From NCBI GenBank assembly GCA_029259175.1, contig JAPDJH010000009.1:32001-96000 (forward strand): DNA of 64,000 nucleotides. The letters are read 5' to 3'. Origin of the DNA: Hadesarchaea archaeon (GTDB taxonomy: Archaea; Hadarchaeota; Hadarchaeia; Hadarchaeales; Hadarchaeaceae). The first letter of the stretch is position 1. Each line of letters begins with the position of its first letter. Below are positions 37,927 through 44,905 of the stretch, one piece after another. Under the pieces are notes generated by a model, which was given only the letters and a program-made list of their open reading frames with translations, did not search any database and was not told the origin of the DNA. The position numbers and the translations under genes are program-made.

Positions 37927-38001
37927 GCCGCCGTAGCTGAGCCTGGTTACAGCGGCCGCCTTGTAAGCGGCAGATCGTGGGTTCAAATCCCACCGGCGGC
38001 T
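37927..38001 (+). tRNA. tRNA-Thr(TGT), CCA not encoded
   Basis: GCCGCCG/CGGCGGC acceptor stem; GCCGC-CTTGTAA-GCGGC; GTGGG-TTCAAAT-CCCAC. Confidence 0.95.
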
Positions 38002-38003
38002 CA

Positions 38004-38234
38004 TTACAACTTCTCCAACAGCTCAAAGAACCTCTCTCGGGTAAGCTCCGCCTCCCGGATTATCGCCCGCACGAGCGCTGGCTTGATCTCCCTATCCGGA
38101 TGGACCGGGATAACGGTACGCACGTTCTCTTTCATCAGGATAACGTGGGGACCCTTCCTCCTAACAATTCGAAATCCTTCATGGATCAATATCTTGATGA
38201 GCTTCTCAGCTGGAACAGGCCCGATTTTAGGCAT
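38004..38234 (-). CDS. hicA: HicA-family toxin
   Basis: 76 aa, GFRIVRRKGPHVIL, TVIPVH, AIIREAEL. Confidence 0.85.
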   Translation of the reverse strand: MPKIGPVPAEKLIKILIHEGFRIVRRKGPHVILMKENVRTVIPVHPDREIKPALVRAIIREAELTRERFFELLEKL

Positions 38235-38466
38235 GAACCTCTACTTTTTGTAATCCAACAACTGACTGCGCCATTTTGAGAACTTCTGATTTCTCCTCTT
38301 CATCAAGGGTTTCCAAGTAGAGTTCGATTGCCTCCTCAACATTTTTCATCAACTCTTCGAGCGTTTCGCCTTGCGTGTGGCACCCTGGCAGGGAAGGAAC
38401 AAACGCCACGTAACCGCCCGTCTCATCCTTTTGAACCACTACATCGAACATCAATCTCTTGGCCAT
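38227..38466 (-). CDS. hicB: HicB-family antitoxin
   Basis: GGYVAFVPSLPGCHTQGETLEE..NVEEAIELYL. Confidence 0.9.
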   Translation of the reverse strand: MAKRLMFDVVVQKDETGGYVAFVPSLPGCHTQGETLEELMKNVEEAIELYLETLDEEEKSEVLKMAQSVVGLQKVEVHA

Positions 38467-38573
38467 GTCTTTCCCAACCACTCTATGTAAACCAGAGTAT
38501 AAAATCTATGGGAAGTTCCAGCACGAGCAATCGTCCGTGTTTGACAAGCAGTAGGGAATAGACAAGAGGAATC

Positions 38574-38613
38574 TCTGTCCTTCCTCTTTCATTAAGACCA
38601 CCGGCGGCTCCAC
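38574..38613 (+). repeat. Cassette boundary repeat R1 (arm plus tRNA-Thr 3' end)
   Basis: TCTGTCCTTCCTCTTTCATTAAGA-CCACCGGCGGCTCCAC. Confidence 0.85.
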
Positions 38614-38656
38614 GAACACAGTAAATTATTTAAATTTTGAAACAATTGTTTTAAAT

Positions 38657-39205
38657 ATGAAACATCTAGACGAAAAGGCTTTGAAGGTGCTCACCTACTT
38701 CTTTGAGAACCCGCGAGAAGAAGTTTACCTGCGGGAACTGGCACGCCGGCTACGGATGAGCCCAGCAACTGTTATGCGAGCCCTACGTCTCCTCATTAGA
38801 GAAGGCTTGATAACCAAGCGCCCGGAGAAGCACGCCACCTATTTCAAGGCCAACCTTAACCCATACTTCAGAGAGTTGAAGAAAGCGCATACGGTTTCCA
38901 AAGTCTTGCGCTCCGGAATTCTTGAACTCATCAACGAGAAATCGGTAGGTCTAAGTTCAATACTGCTCTACGGGAGCGCCGCTAAAGGCGAAGACGATCG
39001 GGGAAGCGACTACGACTTTCTGGTGATTGCCGCAAGATGCGCCCTGAGAAGCAGTGAACTCTCGAAACTTCTAGGGAGAGAGGCCACCCTACAGGTCTTC
39101 GACGTGGCGGGCTGGAAACGAGTAGCAAAGCGAAACCGAGCATTCTACCTAGACGTTATAAGCAATTCCATTGTCCTTTATGGTGGAAAGCCGGTGATCG
39201 ATTGA
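38657..39205 (+). CDS. wHTH + minimal nucleotidyltransferase (MNT) antitoxin
   Basis: YLRELARRLRMSPATV HTH; LYGSAAKG...SDYDFLV. Confidence 0.85.
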   Translation: MKHLDEKALKVLTYFFENPREEVYLRELARRLRMSPATVMRALRLLIREGLITKRPEKHATYFKANLNPYFRELKKAHTVSKVLRSGILELINEKSVGLSSILLYGSAAKGEDDRGSDYDFLVIAARCALRSSELSKLLGREATLQVFDVAGWKRVAKRNRAFYLDVISNSIVLYGGKPVID

Positions 39206-39642
39206 CGCTTAGGGATTGTCTTGCGCAAAGGAAGTTGCGCAGGATACGGCCGGATCCGCTCAAAGCCCGCAAATCGCTGGAAGCTGCGTCTGCAAAACTG
39301 AAAAAGGCCAAGGAACTCCTCGCCGATGAGCATTACGATGCAACCCTTCTGTACGCGTACACGAGCATGTTCAGCTCGGGAAGAGCTCTCCTTTACAAGG
39401 ACGGCATCCAAGAGAAATCCCACTACTGTTTGGCTAGGTATCTAGAGGAGAGGTACGTGAAGAGAGGAAAGTTGAATCCAAAGATCATCACCTTCCTCGA
39501 CTCTTTCCGTGAGGAGCGGCACGCGATAATGTATGGGTTCGAGGAGGTTGAAATCCGGCGCGAAGAGGCTGAGGAAGCCATCTCGGTTGCGGAAGAATTC
39601 CTTGGGAGAGCTAAAGAACTCGTGGGTAAGCGTACGCGCTGA
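39202..39642 (+). CDS. HEPN-domain toxin
   Basis: AYTSMFSSGRALL, KSH, REERHAIMY; start overlaps the MNT stop. Confidence 0.85.
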   Translation: MTLRDCLAQRKLRRIRPDPLKARKSLEAASAKLKKAKELLADEHYDATLLYAYTSMFSSGRALLYKDGIQEKSHYCLARYLEERYVKRGKLNPKIITFLDSFREERHAIMYGFEEVEIRREEAEEAISVAEEFLGRAKELVGKRTR

Positions 39643-39690
39643 ATGAAGAAGCTTGCTATTGCTTATCGTCTTTGGTTCTCTGCCGTGGTT

Positions 39691-39733
39691 TCTGTCCTTA
39701 TACTTTTGATAGGAAGCCCACTAGTGGCTCCAC
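39691..39733 (+). repeat. Cassette boundary repeat R2 (degenerate)
   Basis: TCTGTCCTTATACTTTTGATAGGAAG-CCCACTAGTGGCTCCAC. Confidence 0.7.
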
Positions 39734-39795
39734 TATATTTTTTAATAAATAGTTAACTTAATATATAGTTAAGTTTTAGGAATAACGGTGTTGAG

Positions 39796-40713
39796 ATGTG
39801 GCCTGCTGAATGGCTAGCAGAGAAATACTTTGAGATCAAAGAGCTGCCGCGAATAGTCGATCGAAACATGGTTGCAAAAATTTGGAAAACTAACAAAAAC
39901 TACGCGAGTGTCACCTTGCACGAGATGCGCGAAGCTTTACTTATAGACAGATTGAAGAGAGGAGCATATCTATCGGTACCGCCTGAGAAATGGCTGCCGG
40001 TGCACTCGTTCCTGATGCGAACTCCAGAAATCGCTCCAGCTCTATCTAAACTATTACAGGACTCGATGAACGATATTGAGTGTCTGGTGCTCTATGGCTC
40101 GCGGATTTGGGGGGGAGATGAGCTAAGCGACTGGGATTTCTTCACCGTTGTTTCCTCCGAAAAGTCGAAGAATGCGATGAGGACCAAACTCCTCAAAATC
40201 AGGCAAACAAATCTTCGACTTGATGTGGAGATATTGTCTGTTCAAGACTTCGAGTTTCTCCTACGCAAAGACCCGATTTTTCTCAAACTCGTAGCGTGCG
40301 AGTGCAGGCCCATAGTAGATACTGGTATTCTTGGAATTGCCAAGGCAATCGAGATTAAACCAGAACACGTTGCCGTTGAAATGTTGGCCGCGAAAGAAAA
40401 TATTCTACAGGGCATGGCATGCGCGCGACGAGGCGAAAGCAGTATCGCCTGCTACTGGCTCACCCGCGGGATCCGGCGAACGCTTGCTGCGGCCCTCTCC
40501 ATGTGTGAAAACTTCTCCGGGAAAGCTTTGGAAGAGGAATTCAAAGCACGTTTTCCTCAGTATGAGCAACTTCGGGTGATCGTTAAAAAAATTGGCTTGG
40601 AACGAGAAACACATATACCAAAAAAATTCCTTAGAGAACTTGTTAACAGAACAATAGTCGAGTGGGAACTGGTAGCAAAGGAGTTGCGCAGATGGGGAAA
40701 AAGCGCAAAATAA
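39796..40713 (+). CDS. wHTH-MNT protein with C-terminal helical (HEPN-like) domain
   Basis: N-terminal LIDRLKRGAY wing; LYGSRIWG...SDWDFF; helical C-terminus. Confidence 0.7.
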   Translation: MWPAEWLAEKYFEIKELPRIVDRNMVAKIWKTNKNYASVTLHEMREALLIDRLKRGAYLSVPPEKWLPVHSFLMRTPEIAPALSKLLQDSMNDIECLVLYGSRIWGGDELSDWDFFTVVSSEKSKNAMRTKLLKIRQTNLRLDVEILSVQDFEFLLRKDPIFLKLVACECRPIVDTGILGIAKAIEIKPEHVAVEMLAAKENILQGMACARRGESSIACYWLTRGIRRTLAAALSMCENFSGKALEEEFKARFPQYEQLRVIVKKIGLERETHIPKKFLRELVNRTIVEWELVAKELRRWGKSAK

Positions 40714-40949
40714 AGAAACCAGCAGCGCTTCTGGCACAAAGAAAAGCACACTTGCAACTTGCAGAGGAATTTTCCAAACTCGTACCAACTGAAGTAATTA
40801 AACATTGGGAAAAAGAGGCCGAGCGCTTCGAACGCGAAGCTAGACGGCTTATGACAGGGTTACCCACGAGCTACCTAGAAGAAATAGAAAAGATAAGTGA
40901 TGAAGAAGCGAAAAAGCTCTTACGAAGGAAGCGAAAAGAGATAATCTAG
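40692..40949 (+). CDS. Small basic/helical hypothetical protein, partner of the upstream MNT
   Basis: 85 aa from ATG 40692, overlaps the upstream gene, ends just before R3. Confidence 0.55.
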   Translation: MGKKRKIKKPAALLAQRKAHLQLAEEFSKLVPTEVIKHWEKEAERFEREARRLMTGLPTSYLEEIEKISDEEAKKLLRRKRKEII

Positions 40950-40968
40950 ACATTCGCGTAGCGAATCT

Positions 40969-41010
40969 TCTGTCCTTTACTTTCATTAAGGATCCCACCG
41001 GCGGCTCCAC
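40969..41010 (+). repeat. Cassette boundary repeat R3
   Basis: TCTGTCCTTTACTTTCATTAAGG-ATCCCACCGGCGGCTCCAC; 16 nt identical to 37987-38002. Confidence 0.9.
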
Positions 41011-41057
41011 AAAAAATAGTTTATAGGTAAGGATTTCTTACATTAATTAGTGATGGG

Positions 41058-41309
41058 ATGAAAGGAAGCGTGGTAAAAATTACCTCAAAAGGACAACTTA
41101 CCCTCCCCGTGGAAATCCGGAGAGAGTTAGGGGTTAGGAAAGACGATTATCTTTACGTCACAAGAGCTGGTGAGCTAATTCTGATGAAGCGGATCGGAGT
41201 GAATCCTAAGGAAATTTTAGATACCTTTCAGCAAGTCGCAAAGGAGAGCGGGCTGACGAGAAAAGAACTAAACCGGGTCATCCGCGAGATCAGGCGGGCA
41301 AAAGAATGA
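41058..41309 (+). CDS. AbrB/MazE-family antitoxin
   Basis: KITSKGQLTLPVEIRRELG. Confidence 0.9.
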   Translation: MKGSVVKITSKGQLTLPVEIRRELGVRKDDYLYVTRAGELILMKRIGVNPKEILDTFQQVAKESGLTRKELNRVIREIRRAKE

Positions 41310-41728
41310 ATAAAAAGCCAAGAGTTTTCTTGGACACGAACGTTTTGATATCGGGAATGGTATTCAGAGGAAACGAGAGGAAACTGCTGGACGCGATTAT
41401 TGATAACCGATTGAAACTGGTAATAAGCGACGATGTTTTGAACGAAACAGAAATGGTCTTCAGGAAAAAATTCCCGCAGCACCGTGTTCTTTTCCCGTTA
41501 TTTTTGCAGCTCGTGAAGCACGAAAGAATACCGAGAAAAGCGTATAGAAAAGCCGAAAAGACATATTCTGGACTCCTCCGTGACAAAACAGACGCCCACA
41601 TCCTTGCGGCCGCTGTCGTGGGCAAGTGCGATTATCTAATTGCCGGCGACAAAGAACTCCTTTCCCTGAAGAAAGTTGGTCTCACAAAAATAATTCAAAC
41701 GTGGGAGTTGCTGAGAGAATTGAAATAA
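41306..41728 (+). CDS. vapC: PIN-domain (VapC) toxin
   Basis: FLDTNVLIS, E, DKTDAHIL, GDKELL. Confidence 0.9.
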   Translation: MNKKPRVFLDTNVLISGMVFRGNERKLLDAIIDNRLKLVISDDVLNETEMVFRKKFPQHRVLFPLFLQLVKHERIPRKAYRKAEKTYSGLLRDKTDAHILAAAVVGKCDYLIAGDKELLSLKKVGLTKIIQTWELLRELK

Positions 41729-41787
41729 ACGTGTGCTCTGTCTCCTCGCGCTTCAGCAAAAACTAAAAACCACACCACCCATCAGAA

Positions 41788-43914
41788 GTGTTGGTGAAGA
41801 GACTCGCTCTCCTAGCTGGAGCAATCCTCATCATTCTCGCCATGGCTCTCCACACTGGAGAAAAGAAGGGAGTTGAGCTGCCCCCGCCGGAGGAGAACCT
41901 CGTGCCTTCTCCATCCCAGCAAGGGCCCGCATGGGAAAACGAAATGGAAGAGATTTTGGTCCAAGTGTTCGAGAGCTCCTATCGAACGGCCGGGCCAGCA
42001 GTCGGAGAGTTCGAGAACGGGCAAGCAGCTGATCTCGTGCTTTTTCAACACGGGTTTGACAACTCCGGAGGCCCACTGAGCTTCAATCACCCCATGGGTC
42101 TGACAACCGACGGGCAGAGACTGATCCTGGCAGACACGCGCAACAACCGCGTTTTGATCTGGAACGAACTGCCCGACTCAAACACCGTCCCCGACCTCGT
42201 GCTCGGCCAGCCTGATTTCTATCACAACGTTCCCGGCGACGGTTTGGACGAAATGAACTGGCCGGTGGGCGTGGCGACCGATGGCACCAGCCTCGCGGTC
42301 GCGGACACGATGAACAACCGCGTTCTGGTCTGGCTCGACTTCCCCACCGAAAACGGAGAGCCAGCCGACCTGGCCATCTACGGTCCACCCGACCAGCCCA
42401 TCGGTGGCCCTTGGGGCGTCTACTTCCTCGATAACAGATTCATAGTCGTGAGCACTTGGGGCAACTCGGGTGTCTACATCTGGAACCACATCCCCTCAGC
42501 CGATGAGCCACCGGATCTTGTGCTCACGGGCGACGGAATGATGGGAACGCCGCGGCAGGTGTGGAGCGACGAACAAAGACTGGTCGTTGTGGATCACAAC
42601 ATCGCGCTCGAATCTGGGGGATCCCAGCCCGGCATGCTTTTCTGGCTGGACTTTCCGACTGCTGACGAGCCACCCGACTTTTACATGACCGGAATGCTGT
42701 GGGGACCAGCGATGGACCACCAGGGGCGCTTCATGGTGCTCAACAACTACGGCCTAGCGATATGGAACGATTTCCCCGCAGGACCGGACGACGAAGCAGA
42801 TCTGGTCATAGGCTCTCCAATGATTGCAGAGTGGATCAGGCGACAGGAGTACCGCTTCGACGATGGAGATGGATCGAGCATTGTTCCTGCGGGCGACCGG
42901 CTGTACATCTCGCTGTACAATGCCAACATGGTGGTCGGCTACCGGTCCTTGCCTGCTTCGCCGGACGATCTGCCAGACTTCGCCTTGGGATCGACGAGTA
43001 TTTGGATAAATCCGATGGAAAACAAGGGTTTCTTCGAGAACCCCGTTCCCGCCTCGGATGGGGAGCACCTCTTCGTGGCCAGCGGATTCAGCAGGCGTCT
43101 GTGCGTCTGGCGCAATATTCCCGATGAGAGCGGTGCAACCCCCGATGTGATCTACACGTTTCCAAATCTTGAGCCCACCAACGTTTGGGTGGAAAACGGA
43201 AAGCTGGCGCTCGGAACGAACAGCTCAATCGTCTACATCTGGAATCACTTGCCCCTAGCAGGCGAACTTCCAGATGTTGTTCTCAACCTAGAAAACATCT
43301 TTGCCCCTCCGGAGAGCGATTCAGCCGAAACCGGCATCATCCCCGTGTGGGTTTGCCTGGCCAAAAACCGGCTGTTCGTTTGGGAGGTCGGGGGGACGAT
43401 TCTGGTGTGGAACGAGGTGCCCACAGAGCAAGAGGACCCGGATCTCGTCATCCCCACCGATCTCCCGATCTCGTGGCTGTGTGTGGACGACGATCGCCTA
43501 GTCGTTACGACAAGGGACGATGAGGTCAGGGTGTATGACCTAATTGACCTCCTCTCCCTCCAGCCCCCGGCTACCGAAAAACTGAGCAAAGAGGGGGCTC
43601 CCCAGATCGAAAATGCTCTGCGTTTGGTATTGAGAAGGGATGCGAACAGGGAGGAGTTTAGAGCCCCCACCGGTGTCCACTCGCGAGAAAACAAGCTCTT
43701 GCTAGTAGACCTAGAGCTGAGCGAGGTGTTTATCTGGAACGGATTCCCCACCCAGAACGACCAGCCACCGGACGCCGTTTTGGGGAGTAAAATGGAGTGG
43801 GCAACCAACAGCAACACATTCTTCTGGCCAGCGATGGTGTGGTACGATGGAGACCACCTCTGGGTCGGGGAAACCAAATTCTCGAACAGACTTCTGAGAT
43901 TCTCGCCCTCATAG
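41788..43914 (+). CDS. Membrane-anchored NHL-repeat beta-propeller protein
   Basis: N-terminal TM; repeated ADTxNNRVLIWNxxP...PDLVLG units; acidic. Confidence 0.75.
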   Translation: MLVKRLALLAGAILIILAMALHTGEKKGVELPPPEENLVPSPSQQGPAWENEMEEILVQVFESSYRTAGPAVGEFENGQAADLVLFQHGFDNSGGPLSFNHPMGLTTDGQRLILADTRNNRVLIWNELPDSNTVPDLVLGQPDFYHNVPGDGLDEMNWPVGVATDGTSLAVADTMNNRVLVWLDFPTENGEPADLAIYGPPDQPIGGPWGVYFLDNRFIVVSTWGNSGVYIWNHIPSADEPPDLVLTGDGMMGTPRQVWSDEQRLVVVDHNIALESGGSQPGMLFWLDFPTADEPPDFYMTGMLWGPAMDHQGRFMVLNNYGLAIWNDFPAGPDDEADLVIGSPMIAEWIRRQEYRFDDGDGSSIVPAGDRLYISLYNANMVVGYRSLPASPDDLPDFALGSTSIWINPMENKGFFENPVPASDGEHLFVASGFSRRLCVWRNIPDESGATPDVIYTFPNLEPTNVWVENGKLALGTNSSIVYIWNHLPLAGELPDVVLNLENIFAPPESDSAETGIIPVWVCLAKNRLFVWEVGGTILVWNEVPTEQEDPDLVIPTDLPISWLCVDDDRLVVTTRDDEVRVYDLIDLLSLQPPATEKLSKEGAPQIENALRLVLRRDANREEFRAPTGVHSRENKLLLVDLELSEVFIWNGFPTQNDQPPDAVLGSKMEWATNSNTFFWPAMVWYDGDHLWVGETKFSNRLLRFSPS

Positions 43915-44104
43915 AAGCGGGTGTCCCGCGCCCGGTGGAACCTGAGCCATCGCCTCGTCTCCTCAGGCGCATGGCAGGCGCGGGCATAGAAAATTTTTCT
44001 TTCTCACTAAAAAGGGTTACAAGTCTATAACACTGTCCACAAACATGCTGAGTATGATCCAGTCGTCTATAAGTGTAGTGTGCTCATCCGAAAGTATTCT
44101 GATC

Positions 44105-44905
44105 CTAAAAAGCTGATTCACACTTTAGACCTAGAACTTTAGATTTCCGCTCGATTTCTTTTTTTACACTTCTCCACCACTCTGGCGTTTGCAAGATCTT
44201 TTTTATCTTAGCAACTTCCTCCGCGCCAAATACTCGTTCAAGTCTCTCGAGCACACCCGTTTTTACGTTGAGCTTATCATACATCACATAACTTCCACTA
44301 GACTTGGCTTCTCGCAACACTTCTTCGATTTGCTCGGGCGAATCGTTCACACCTGGGATTATAGGGCCCAAGAACAGCCACGTCTCCACATTACGCTCTT
44401 TGAATTCCTTCAGAACCTGAACACGTGCATCGGGATCCGGCGCACGAGGTTCAATTTTAGAAACGACATCTGCATCCAGCGTGGTAACCGTCACGCCCAC
44501 TTCGAATTTCTCCCCCCGGATAAGATCCCGATCGCGCAACACCAGATCAGATTTGGTCTGAATGCAAACACCAAAACCCGAATCGCGGAGAACCTCCAAA
44601 CACCGTCTGGTAAGCTCCACCTCTTTTTCAATTGGCTGGTAGGGATCACAGACTGTAGAAACACCCACCACCCCCGGCCGCTTACGTCTCACTTCAGCCC
44701 TCAGCACCTCAGCCACATTCTCCTTAAGCCAAACATCCTGTCCCCACCTCTCCACCAGTTCGGCATCTCTCAGAATAGCTGGAGAGTAACAGTAGAGACA
44801 GCCGTGCTCACATCCGCGATAGGGATTAAGAGCATAATCCAGTCCCGGAAGTCCGCTTTTCGATAGCGCGCTCTTGCACCGCATCAGGTGGTACCTTGCT
44901 TTCAT
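44105..44905 (-). CDS. Radical SAM protein (spore photoproduct lyase-like family)
   Basis: NPYRGCEHGCLYC, DPYQPIE, QTKS. Confidence 0.9.
   Translation of the reverse strand: MKARYHLMRCKSALSKSGLPGLDYALNPYRGCEHGCLYCYSPAILRDAELVERWGQDVWLKENVAEVLRAEVRRKRPGVVGVSTVCDPYQPIEKEVELTRRCLEVLRDSGFGVCIQTKSDLVLRDRDLIRGEKFEVGVTVTTLDADVVSKIEPRAPDPDARVQVLKEFKERNVETWLFLGPIIPGVNDSPEQIEEVLREAKSSGSYVMYDKLNVKTGVLERLERVFGAEEVAKIKKILQTPEWWRSVKKEIERKSKVLGLKCESAF

Follow-up and report, generated by a model that had tools for sequence, protein, structure and literature searches.

What places four unrelated toxin-antitoxin (TA) type gene pairs one after another behind a single tRNA gene? The question is raised by a 64,000-nt stretch of a Hadesarchaea archaeon genome (hereafter the window; contig C5, positions 32001-96000), in which tRNA-Thr(UGU), itself just after tpiA, is followed by an array of four compact modules of 0.6-1.3 kb in the order HicA/HicB, winged helix-turn-helix (wHTH) plus minimal nucleotidyltransferase (MNT)/HEPN, 305-aa MNT-like protein/95-aa open reading frame (ORF), and AbrB-MazE/PIN_3. 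The source genome (G000; other G-numbers denote genomes of relatives from the same phylum, and C-numbers contigs) comprises 1.3 Mb in 23 contigs. An earlier note on the bare sequence had recognized four TA-type modules at this place, and the tRNA calls by ARAGORN and Rfam together with the Pfam families of the genes agree with it, the 95-aa ORF being without a family. Our answer, to which we give about an even chance, is that the array is a tandem series of integrase-less mini-islands, accreted by site-specific recombination at the 3′ core of the tRNA via a tRNA-Thr-specific tyrosine integrase from another element.

The structure itself is genuine and has clear limits. Run X5, which belongs to another study, includes a 3231-nt contig that spans positions 37927-41157 with 8 differences, and this independent coverage rules out the assembly artefact that the earlier note had listed as a possible refutation. 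The array has a GC content of 46.8% versus 52.7% for the window, and its spacers measure 59-175 nt. Hydrothermal vent and marine sediment are the labels of the public runs in which the stretch occurs.

Each of the three junctions between modules holds the same bipartite repeat on the forward strand, as the earlier note had seen. R1 (38574-38612, between modules 1 and 2) consists of the arm TCTGTCCTT...CTTTCATTAAG and the core CCACCGGCGGCTCCA; R2 (39691-39732, between modules 2 and 3) of the arm and a variant core, CCCACTAGTGGCTCCA; and R3 (40969-41009, between modules 3 and 4) of the arm and a perfect 16-nt core with CCA. The core repeats the final 16 nt of tRNA-Thr(UGU), from the T-stem 3′ strand through CCA, and the arms are non-tRNA sequences of ~25 nt that begin with TCTGTCCTT, adjoin the core and keep their left edge equidistant from it in R1-R3. 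By arithmetic, a 16-mer with ≤1 mismatch is expected by chance only ~0.03 times in G000. The search for the combined motif that the earlier note had proposed, run with a loose bipartite pattern, gave four matches in the 1.3 Mb of G000, namely R1-R3 and one poor match on C1; arm plus core was found in G024 and G049 as well. A strict core pattern had found sites in 0 of 60 relatives, being too strict, the G024 site came from a looser scan and that of G049 from reading the locus. Comparison with shuffled sequences supports the arms: for almost all pairs of 30-nt arms the observed score was reached by 0-1 of 300 shuffles, the weakest pair being R1 and R2 (1/300 and 7/300). Arms of neighbouring repeats differ by ~30-40% while the cores are almost perfect.

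The middle repeat is the most divergent, in keeping with the earlier note, and its three core changes turn CCACCGGCGG into a perfect 10-nt palindrome, CCACTAGTGG (39717-39726). This variant core was found in none of 65 other genomes of the phylum and is not the 3′ end of any tRNA there. Single-strand DNA folds of R1-R3 on both strands gave no significant hairpin (z-scores of -1.2 to +0.7 against shuffles), and no Rfam family scores at the repeats, the tRNA alone doing so.

The arm is common to unrelated cassettes and to G024 and G049, with a weaker likeness at one G006 site, and the R2 arm is most similar to that of G024. Its orientation relative to the core is constant whether the genes of a unit point toward or away from it. 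This independence of gene direction, along with the sharing across cassettes, ties the arm to recombination rather than expression, and we infer that it acts as a putative binding site. A further arm remnant had been proposed to close cassette 4 at 41736, and this is not supported: the alignment is poor and indistinguishable from chance, and no core-like sequence (≤5 mismatches) follows either cassette 4 or the NHL-repeat gene beyond it outside coding sequence.

The left anchor of the array, attL-like in its position, is by sequence tRNA-Thr(UGU) (37927-38002, forward strand; ARAGORN; Rfam tRNA, 70.1 bits). The earlier note was right that the repeats encode CCA and the intact tRNA gene does not, the latter ending in ...CTCA rather than ...CTCCA; an encoded CCA is nothing special here. 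CCA is encoded by the tRNA-Thr(UGU) genes of all six relatives examined and by about half of the G000 tRNA genes, including a near-identical tRNA-Thr(CGU) on C4. The gap between CCA and the hicA stop codon is 8-9 nt in the HicAB units of G049 and G024, and in the window, where the hicA stop codon lies 2 nt from the end of tRNA-Thr, it is shorter by ~10 nt, so a junction deletion of ~10 nt relative to G024 and G049 took one C from the tRNA end. Given this deletion and the CCA of the relatives' genes, the repeats preserve the ancestral tRNA end. CCA addition would repair a tRNA transcript that lacks an encoded CCA.

The two G000 genes, tRNA-Thr(UGU) at 37927-38002 and tRNA-Thr(CGU) at C4:23197-23274, are almost identical, and compared with G013 the sequences downstream of them have changed places; in G013 the order at C4:85000-104000 is Thr(CGU), genes matching G000 C5 76108-91099, MFS, tpiA, Thr(UGU) and a QueE-like gene. 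Recombination between the two tRNA-Thr genes thus rearranged ~17 kb in this family.

Do the modules exist as units elsewhere? On the evidence of sequence comparisons they behave as discrete, portable units that are bounded by the tRNA 3′-end core and exchanged horizontally. The HicAB unit aligns from core to arm plus core in G000, G049 and G024 at 85%, 81% and 93% nucleotide identity, and a homologous arm plus core closes it in both G024 and G049. These genomes represent three genera in two families (G049 from another family, G024 from another genus), and the sites differ, being tRNA-Thr(UGU), tRNA-Thr(CGU) and a Thr core that lies 33 nt beyond tRNA-Ser(CGA), respectively. HicB is 94-98% identical in amino acids across the copies versus 53-61% for TpiA, and tpiA of G000 and G024 is 67% identical in nucleotides over 502 nt. 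Such identity across families, far above that of housekeeping genes, suggests that the minimal form itself has spread.

The second module tells a similar story. In G042, from a third family, MNT/HEPN sits directly behind tpiA-tRNA-Thr(UGU) without HicAB, and homology to G000 begins exactly at the core and extends over 786 nt at 85%; the 5′ part of the MNT gene is 97% identical in nucleotides to that of G049. In G022 the pair has tRNA-Ser(GGA) on one side and a ~27-nt Ser repeat on the other, and in G015 (C9) it is flanked by a 65-nt non-tRNA direct repeat (1387-1451 and 2528-2592, 98.5% identical), whose resemblance to coding sequence suggests integration into a protein-coding gene. Four genomes have the MNT-like/95-aa pair as well, and in G014 it is enclosed by 26-nt repeats that match a tRNA-Gly-type end. 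The upstream sequence that follows R3 in cassette 4 has homologues immediately behind tRNA-Ser(GCU) in G008 and tRNA-Ala(GGC) in G014. In G015, a perfect tRNA-Ile repeat of 16 nt (0/300 shuffles) delimits a HicBA homologue, and a different MNT/HEPN-like pair, common to G006 and G019 at 75% nucleotide identity, has Thr cores on either side in both.

Altogether, direct repeats of the target 3′ end also bound units in G024, G006, G019, G014, G015 and G022. Their length varies among loci (16, ~26-29 and 65 nt) and includes the tRNA end where tRNA-derived, which marks them as blocks of attachment-site (att) identity rather than fixed-length duplications. G006 and G014 have right-hand cores with a single mismatch to the host's own tRNA, and a foreign T-loop is found in one core of G006; these non-host variants indicate that the repeat arrived with the unit. 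Variable repeats that include the gene end, together with non-host right-hand cores, fit att sites of tyrosine integrases.

In G049 (C1:25500-32500) MNT follows HicAB as in the window, and the copy is visibly worn: the core is truncated and fused to MNT codon 2, MNT is split by a putative transposase-like insertion sequence of ~1.07 kb, and HEPN is lost and replaced by an AbrB/PIN pair of the C4 type. Contigs of run X1 carry exactly the G049 junctions at higher depth than the organism of the window, so the two kinds of organism co-occur.

Occupancy of the sites varies, and the earlier note's expectation that cassette content would differ among relatives was borne out, the sites being empty or filled with other cassettes. 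Clustered extra Thr cores (≤1 mismatch) occur in 5 of 61 genomes scanned (G000, G006, G014, G019 and G024), and at the tRNA-Thr(UGU) loci of six relatives none has a downstream core or the modules of the window. In G004 and G013, homologues of window ~44108-44905 directly follow a tRNA-Thr; everything from 38003 to ~44100, the NHL gene with it, is therefore additional sequence in G000. The junction between tRNA-Thr and the QueE-like gene is empty in G022, G010 and G013 and holds three units in G006, and in G000 (C4:23197-24140) an AbrB/PIN unit of ~0.8 kb is flanked by tRNA-Thr(CGU) and a degenerate core, just before the QueE-like radical-SAM gene. At a site with homologous flanks, G024 has HicAB versus a 232-aa ORF in G000 (C1).

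The claim of minimal TA-only units at this one tRNA thus stands in part. Discrete core-bounded units are present, as claimed; they are not TA-only, since cores also enclose secreted Ig-like and beta-propeller genes, and in G014 the repeat is followed by a GNAT gene, nor are they confined to tRNA-Thr, with Ser, Ile and Gly repeats elsewhere.

A second hotspot was observed at G000:C1:54000-57300 (reverse strand), between tRNA-Ser(GGA) and the S13 operon, with flanks homologous to the G024 HicAB site. In order, it contains the gene of a secreted Ig-like protein (470 aa), a perfect 16-nt Ser repeat, HicBA, what remains of the tRNA-Ser(CGA) flank together with a Thr core, the 232-aa ORF (without a family), another Thr core and a degenerate Ser core. 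Large secreted repeat proteins (NHL, Ig-like, WD40/PQQ beta-propeller) lie in or beside the tRNA-linked arrays, and the C-terminal regions of those in G006 and on G000 C1 look similar by eye in translation. In G019 (C22, 2982-4836), putative cas1, cas2 and cas4 genes, recognized from translations, begin ~100 nt past the closing Thr core of a cassette located behind tRNA-Thr(CGU).

The gene content of cassettes 1, 2 and 4 is that of type II TA systems, with HicA, HicB, HEPN, MazE/AbrB and PIN_3 above the Pfam cut-off and MNT recognized by NTP_transf_2. Cassette 1, which is opposite in strand to the others, comprises the HicA toxin gene (38004-38234, reverse; PF07927, E = 6.6e-16; 84% amino acid identity to the G049 copy) and the HicB antitoxin gene (38227-38481, reverse; PF15919, E = 5.5e-13; 98% to G049 and 94% to G024). 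Cassette 2 comprises the wHTH plus MNT gene (38657-39205, forward; Pfam HTH families with Polbeta/NTP_transf_2; PADLOC PDC-M05A, 1.8e-23), whose product is 87% identical in amino acids to that of the G042 copy directly behind tRNA-Thr, and the HEPN gene (39202-39642, forward; PF05168, 3.4e-17; PADLOC PDC-M05B). Neither the MNT nor HicB has close relatives in viral contigs.

In cassette 3, the 305-aa MNT-like protein (39796-40713, forward) has a weak Polbeta match (2.4e-4) and no match below E = 0.4 in a PDB sequence search, and the overlapping 95-aa partner ORF (40662-40949, forward) has no Pfam and no PADLOC match. Homologues of the MNT-like protein (39-49% amino acid identity) retain the small partner gene in four other genomes, and the 95-aa ORF is co-conserved beside it at 52-57% in G005, G004, G014 and G036, a conserved pairing from which we infer that cassette 3 may be a TA system too. 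Cassette 4 holds an AbrB/MazE-type antitoxin gene (41058-41309, forward; PF04014, 9.6e-9) and a PIN_3, VapC-like toxin gene (41306-41728, forward; PF13470, 2.1e-18) with no closing repeat. Cassette 2 (at 5 loci) and cassette 4 (at 3 loci) are accompanied by conserved AT-rich sequence upstream, which for at least these two we read as predicted promoters. Beyond cassette 4 lies a 708-aa NHL-repeat protein gene with an N-terminal hydrophobic stretch (41788-43914, forward; PF01436). No repeat marks its boundary; it probably belongs to the same inserted region because synteny with relatives resumes only at ~44100-44330.

How might such units have come together? We take a unit to run from just after one 16-nt core copy to the next copy, units 1-3 ending in the shared arm. 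A unit would become transiently circular, carrying arm, core and left flank as an attP-like site; a tRNA-Thr-specific tyrosine integrase of another element would then join the core of the circle to the tRNA 3′ end or to a resident core, each such event adding one unit and one core. The enzyme could come from a co-resident element, acting in trans, or from an adjacent one, in which case accretion would be followed by mobilization in cis. The TA pairs may then resist loss through addiction. Both the circle and the enzyme are conjectural parts of this scheme.

In agreement with the earlier note, the array has no integrase of its own: no PF00589 match lies on its contig and Pfam found no recombinase among the 8 array ORFs. 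Nor were integrase fragments found in the array spacers, where a tblastn search with a single query, the G005 tyrosine integrase, complemented the Pfam searches of ORFs. This integrase (394 aa) directly follows tRNA-Thr(CGU) in G005, and a close copy in G004 follows a tRNA-Thr-like gene that ARAGORN did not call, the downstream flanks of the two being identical. The same query has a single G000 match, at C1:118817-119731 with 40% identity. That tyrosine recombinases would be found elsewhere in G000 held true, with three PF00589 matches, all on C1 and C2, one at tRNA-Tyr on C1 and two adjoining tRNA-Gly and tRNA-Met; a link from them to the arm did not emerge. The tRNA-Tyr match belongs to a putative integrated element of ~22.7 kb (G000:C1:118624-141467) at an intron-bearing tRNA-Tyr, in which the ORF of a 420-aa tyrosine integrase overlaps the tRNA at its 3′ end and is followed by a 915-aa ORF, and whose far side is marked by a 14-nt repeat of the tRNA end.

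Several observations weigh against accretion by a tRNA-Thr-specific integrase. The tRNA-Tyr element of G000 has no arm motif, and nothing like arm plus core lies to the right of the G004 and G005 integrases (27-184 of 200 shuffles score equally). The cassette-bearing G024, G006 and G019 have no PF00589 match, which is weak evidence as these metagenome-assembled genomes (MAGs) are 86-92% complete. Among Logan contigs of public runs, where the earlier note had hoped for circle junctions or empty sites, no circle, empty site or clean excision of the array was seen, uncovered parts being uninformative; two contig joints were listed, one a replaced spacer and one a weak 29-letter joint. The order of modules is unchanged in the sole independent study spanning the array, and G000 and G049 both have HicAB next to MNT, which means that a two-unit block moved or was inherited together at least once. 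Exact-pattern scans for arm plus core gave chance-looking matches only (7 metagenome and 2 genome), which lie in coding sequence of unrelated organisms, and a later exact pattern had 0 matches in viral contigs. In G027 an AbrB/PIN homologue lies beside a tyrosine-recombinase fragment, as a model of decay predicts. Finally, homologous cassette families carry repeats of Ser, Ile, Gly and probably Ala tRNAs, and once a non-tRNA repeat; one integrase specificity therefore cannot explain all of them.

Could the modules instead be what is left of larger elements? Each would then derive from an integrase-bearing plasmid or provirus at a tRNA, of which the TA pair and the distal att site survive, and the units as such would never have moved. 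Archaeal tRNA genes are described as graveyards of decayed elements, often with vapBC (PMC3718332, in the part drawn on here). In G000, 11 of 26 HEPN/PIN/HicA loci lie ≤3.5 kb downstream of a tRNA 3′ end, in zones that make up 10% of the genome (nine different tRNAs; binomial 2e-5, although loci within one array are not independent); most of the tRNA-linked loci have no detectable repeat, and none significant was found behind the other TA-bearing tRNAs (Lys, Leu, Asp, Val and Phe). The recombinase fragment in G027 and the visible decay of the G049 copy point the same way. Independent deletions, however, should not give equal ends, yet the HicAB unit ends the same in three genera, MNT/HEPN starts at the core in both G000 and G042, and AbrB/PIN starts homologously after three tRNA-type ends. 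The constant distance of the arm's left edge from the core in R1-R3, the lack of gene fragments in the spacers and a similarity between families far above that of housekeeping genes also speak against decay, which we consider unlikely as the origin of the array.

Exchange without any dedicated recombinase is a further alternative, in which host recombination at the short repeats would excise a circle with one repeat and a Campbell-type crossover at the tRNA end of another genome would insert it, duplicating the shared stretch. Repeat length is site-dependent (16, ~27 and 65 nt) and always equals the local target, including the coding-like non-tRNA sequence in G015; the internal cassettes of the window have arm plus core on both sides, so that the arm could be duplicated homology; the swapped flanks relative to G013 show that tRNA-Thr copies do recombine; and many cassette-bearing MAGs have no integrase match. 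Against this, 16 nt is very short for RadA-type recombination, arms that differ by ~30-40% beside near-perfect cores fit a protein-recognized site better than a homology tract, and the right-hand cores of G006 and G014, differing from the host tRNA, came with the unit. On balance we hold this route to be quite improbable.

A casposon-like or other non-autonomous transposon, which would insert at the 3′ end of tRNAs, duplicate a 16-nt target site and depend on a transposase or casposase encoded elsewhere, is very improbable: casposons do target tRNA 3′ ends, duplicate the target and form tandem arrays (PMC6563490, in the passages used here), the 16-nt register (T-stem 3′ strand through CCA) is identical for Thr, Ile and Ser, and G000 has a Cas1 gene, but the unit ends have no terminal inverted repeats as judged by eye, the repeats vary in length (16 to 65 nt), right-hand repeats have non-host variants, and the array holds no Cas1 or transposase gene.

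Accretion by a borrowed integrase, our preferred reading of the array, could be part of something wider. We tentatively put forward, as possible though on the doubtful side, a phylum-wide tRNA-anchored cassette exchange, in which one- or two-gene defence and surface-protein modules, equipped with an arm and the terminal 16 nt of a tRNA, circulate as minimal circles between genera and families and stack via recombinases they do not encode, a functional analogue of the integron on tRNA ends. Full-text literature searches returned no description of TA-only units with such sites in archaea, an absence that is not proof.

If the minimal units are truly mobile, TA and defence pairs in these small-genome vent archaea would spread as the smallest of site-specific elements, a gene pair and a site of ~40 nt. 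This would explain the clustering of toxin genes behind tRNA genes in G000 (the 11 of 26 loci), the near-identical modules in different families of the same vent sample, and how tRNA flanks become defence islands. The arm and 16-nt core, set against tRNA-Thr, would also be a defined substrate with which to look for trans-acting archaeal integrases. Should the units be no more than remnants, they are an unusually clean case of addiction-driven survival of TA genes.

Among known systems, casposons resemble the array in that they insert at tRNA 3′ ends, duplicate the end of the target and form tandem arrays (PMC6563490, in the same passages), and the array differs from them in having no Cas1 or PolB in its units, no inverted termini seen by eye and a variable repeat length. 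In archaea, the 3′ ends of tRNA genes serve as targets in Sulfolobus islandicus LAL14/1, where element remnants include vapBC pairs (PMC3718332, as far as cited here), and a study of SSV-type 'suicidal' integrases reports, in the part cited here, that no tandem integrations were found (PMC7253208). Decayed archaeal elements usually retain, in these accounts, int fragments overlapping the tRNA, in contrast to the clean, repeat-bounded tandem units without int fragments described here; our tblastn search with the G005 integrase as sole query detected no SSV-type Int(N) or Int(C) fragments abutting att copies.

The likeness to integrons lies in the ordered small cassettes separated by recombination sites. 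TA cassettes are common in large chromosomal integrons. The label 'integron-like' used in the earlier note nevertheless did not hold up, as the array has no intI or attI and no evident Pc, its sites are copies of a tRNA 3′ end plus an arm rather than folded attC hairpins (no significant hairpin having been found), and cassettes 2 and 4, at least, bring along conserved upstream regions that we read as predicted promoters. Integrons themselves have been reported in Archaea (bioRxiv 10.1101/2022.02.06.479319, to the extent drawn on here).

By our comparison, the closest precedents are integrase-less cis-mobilizable elements (CIMEs) and the tandem ssrA islands of Dehalococcoides. CIMEs, described in the sections cited here as decayed bacterial integrative conjugative or mobilizable elements that move with a neighbouring conjugative element, keep attL and attR without integration or transfer genes and sit in tandem arrays with other elements at a target gene's 3′ end (PMC5704250). 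The array likewise has att-type direct repeats and no integration or transfer genes, and it is unlike CIMEs as there described in having no adjacent functional element, in a minimal form that has seemingly spread between genera and in implying no conjugation. The ssrA islands are arranged in tandem downstream of ssrA with a 20-bp repeat of its 3′ end and an adjacent conserved non-ssrA motif (McMurdie et al. 2011, PMC3146451); some of them, according to the portion of that paper used here, are without integration genes and were proposed to be cis-mobilizable, and their content varies between strains. As in the array, a short repeat of a stable-RNA 3′ end is involved (20 bp there, 16 nt here), and the motif immediately upstream of the repeat corresponds to the arm. 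The ssrA islands so described are bacterial, sit at a transfer-messenger RNA and mostly have their own serine-recombinase module, whereas the array is archaeal and its units, of 0.6-1.3 kb and mostly TA, are all recombinase-free, with tyrosine integrases as the candidate enzymes.

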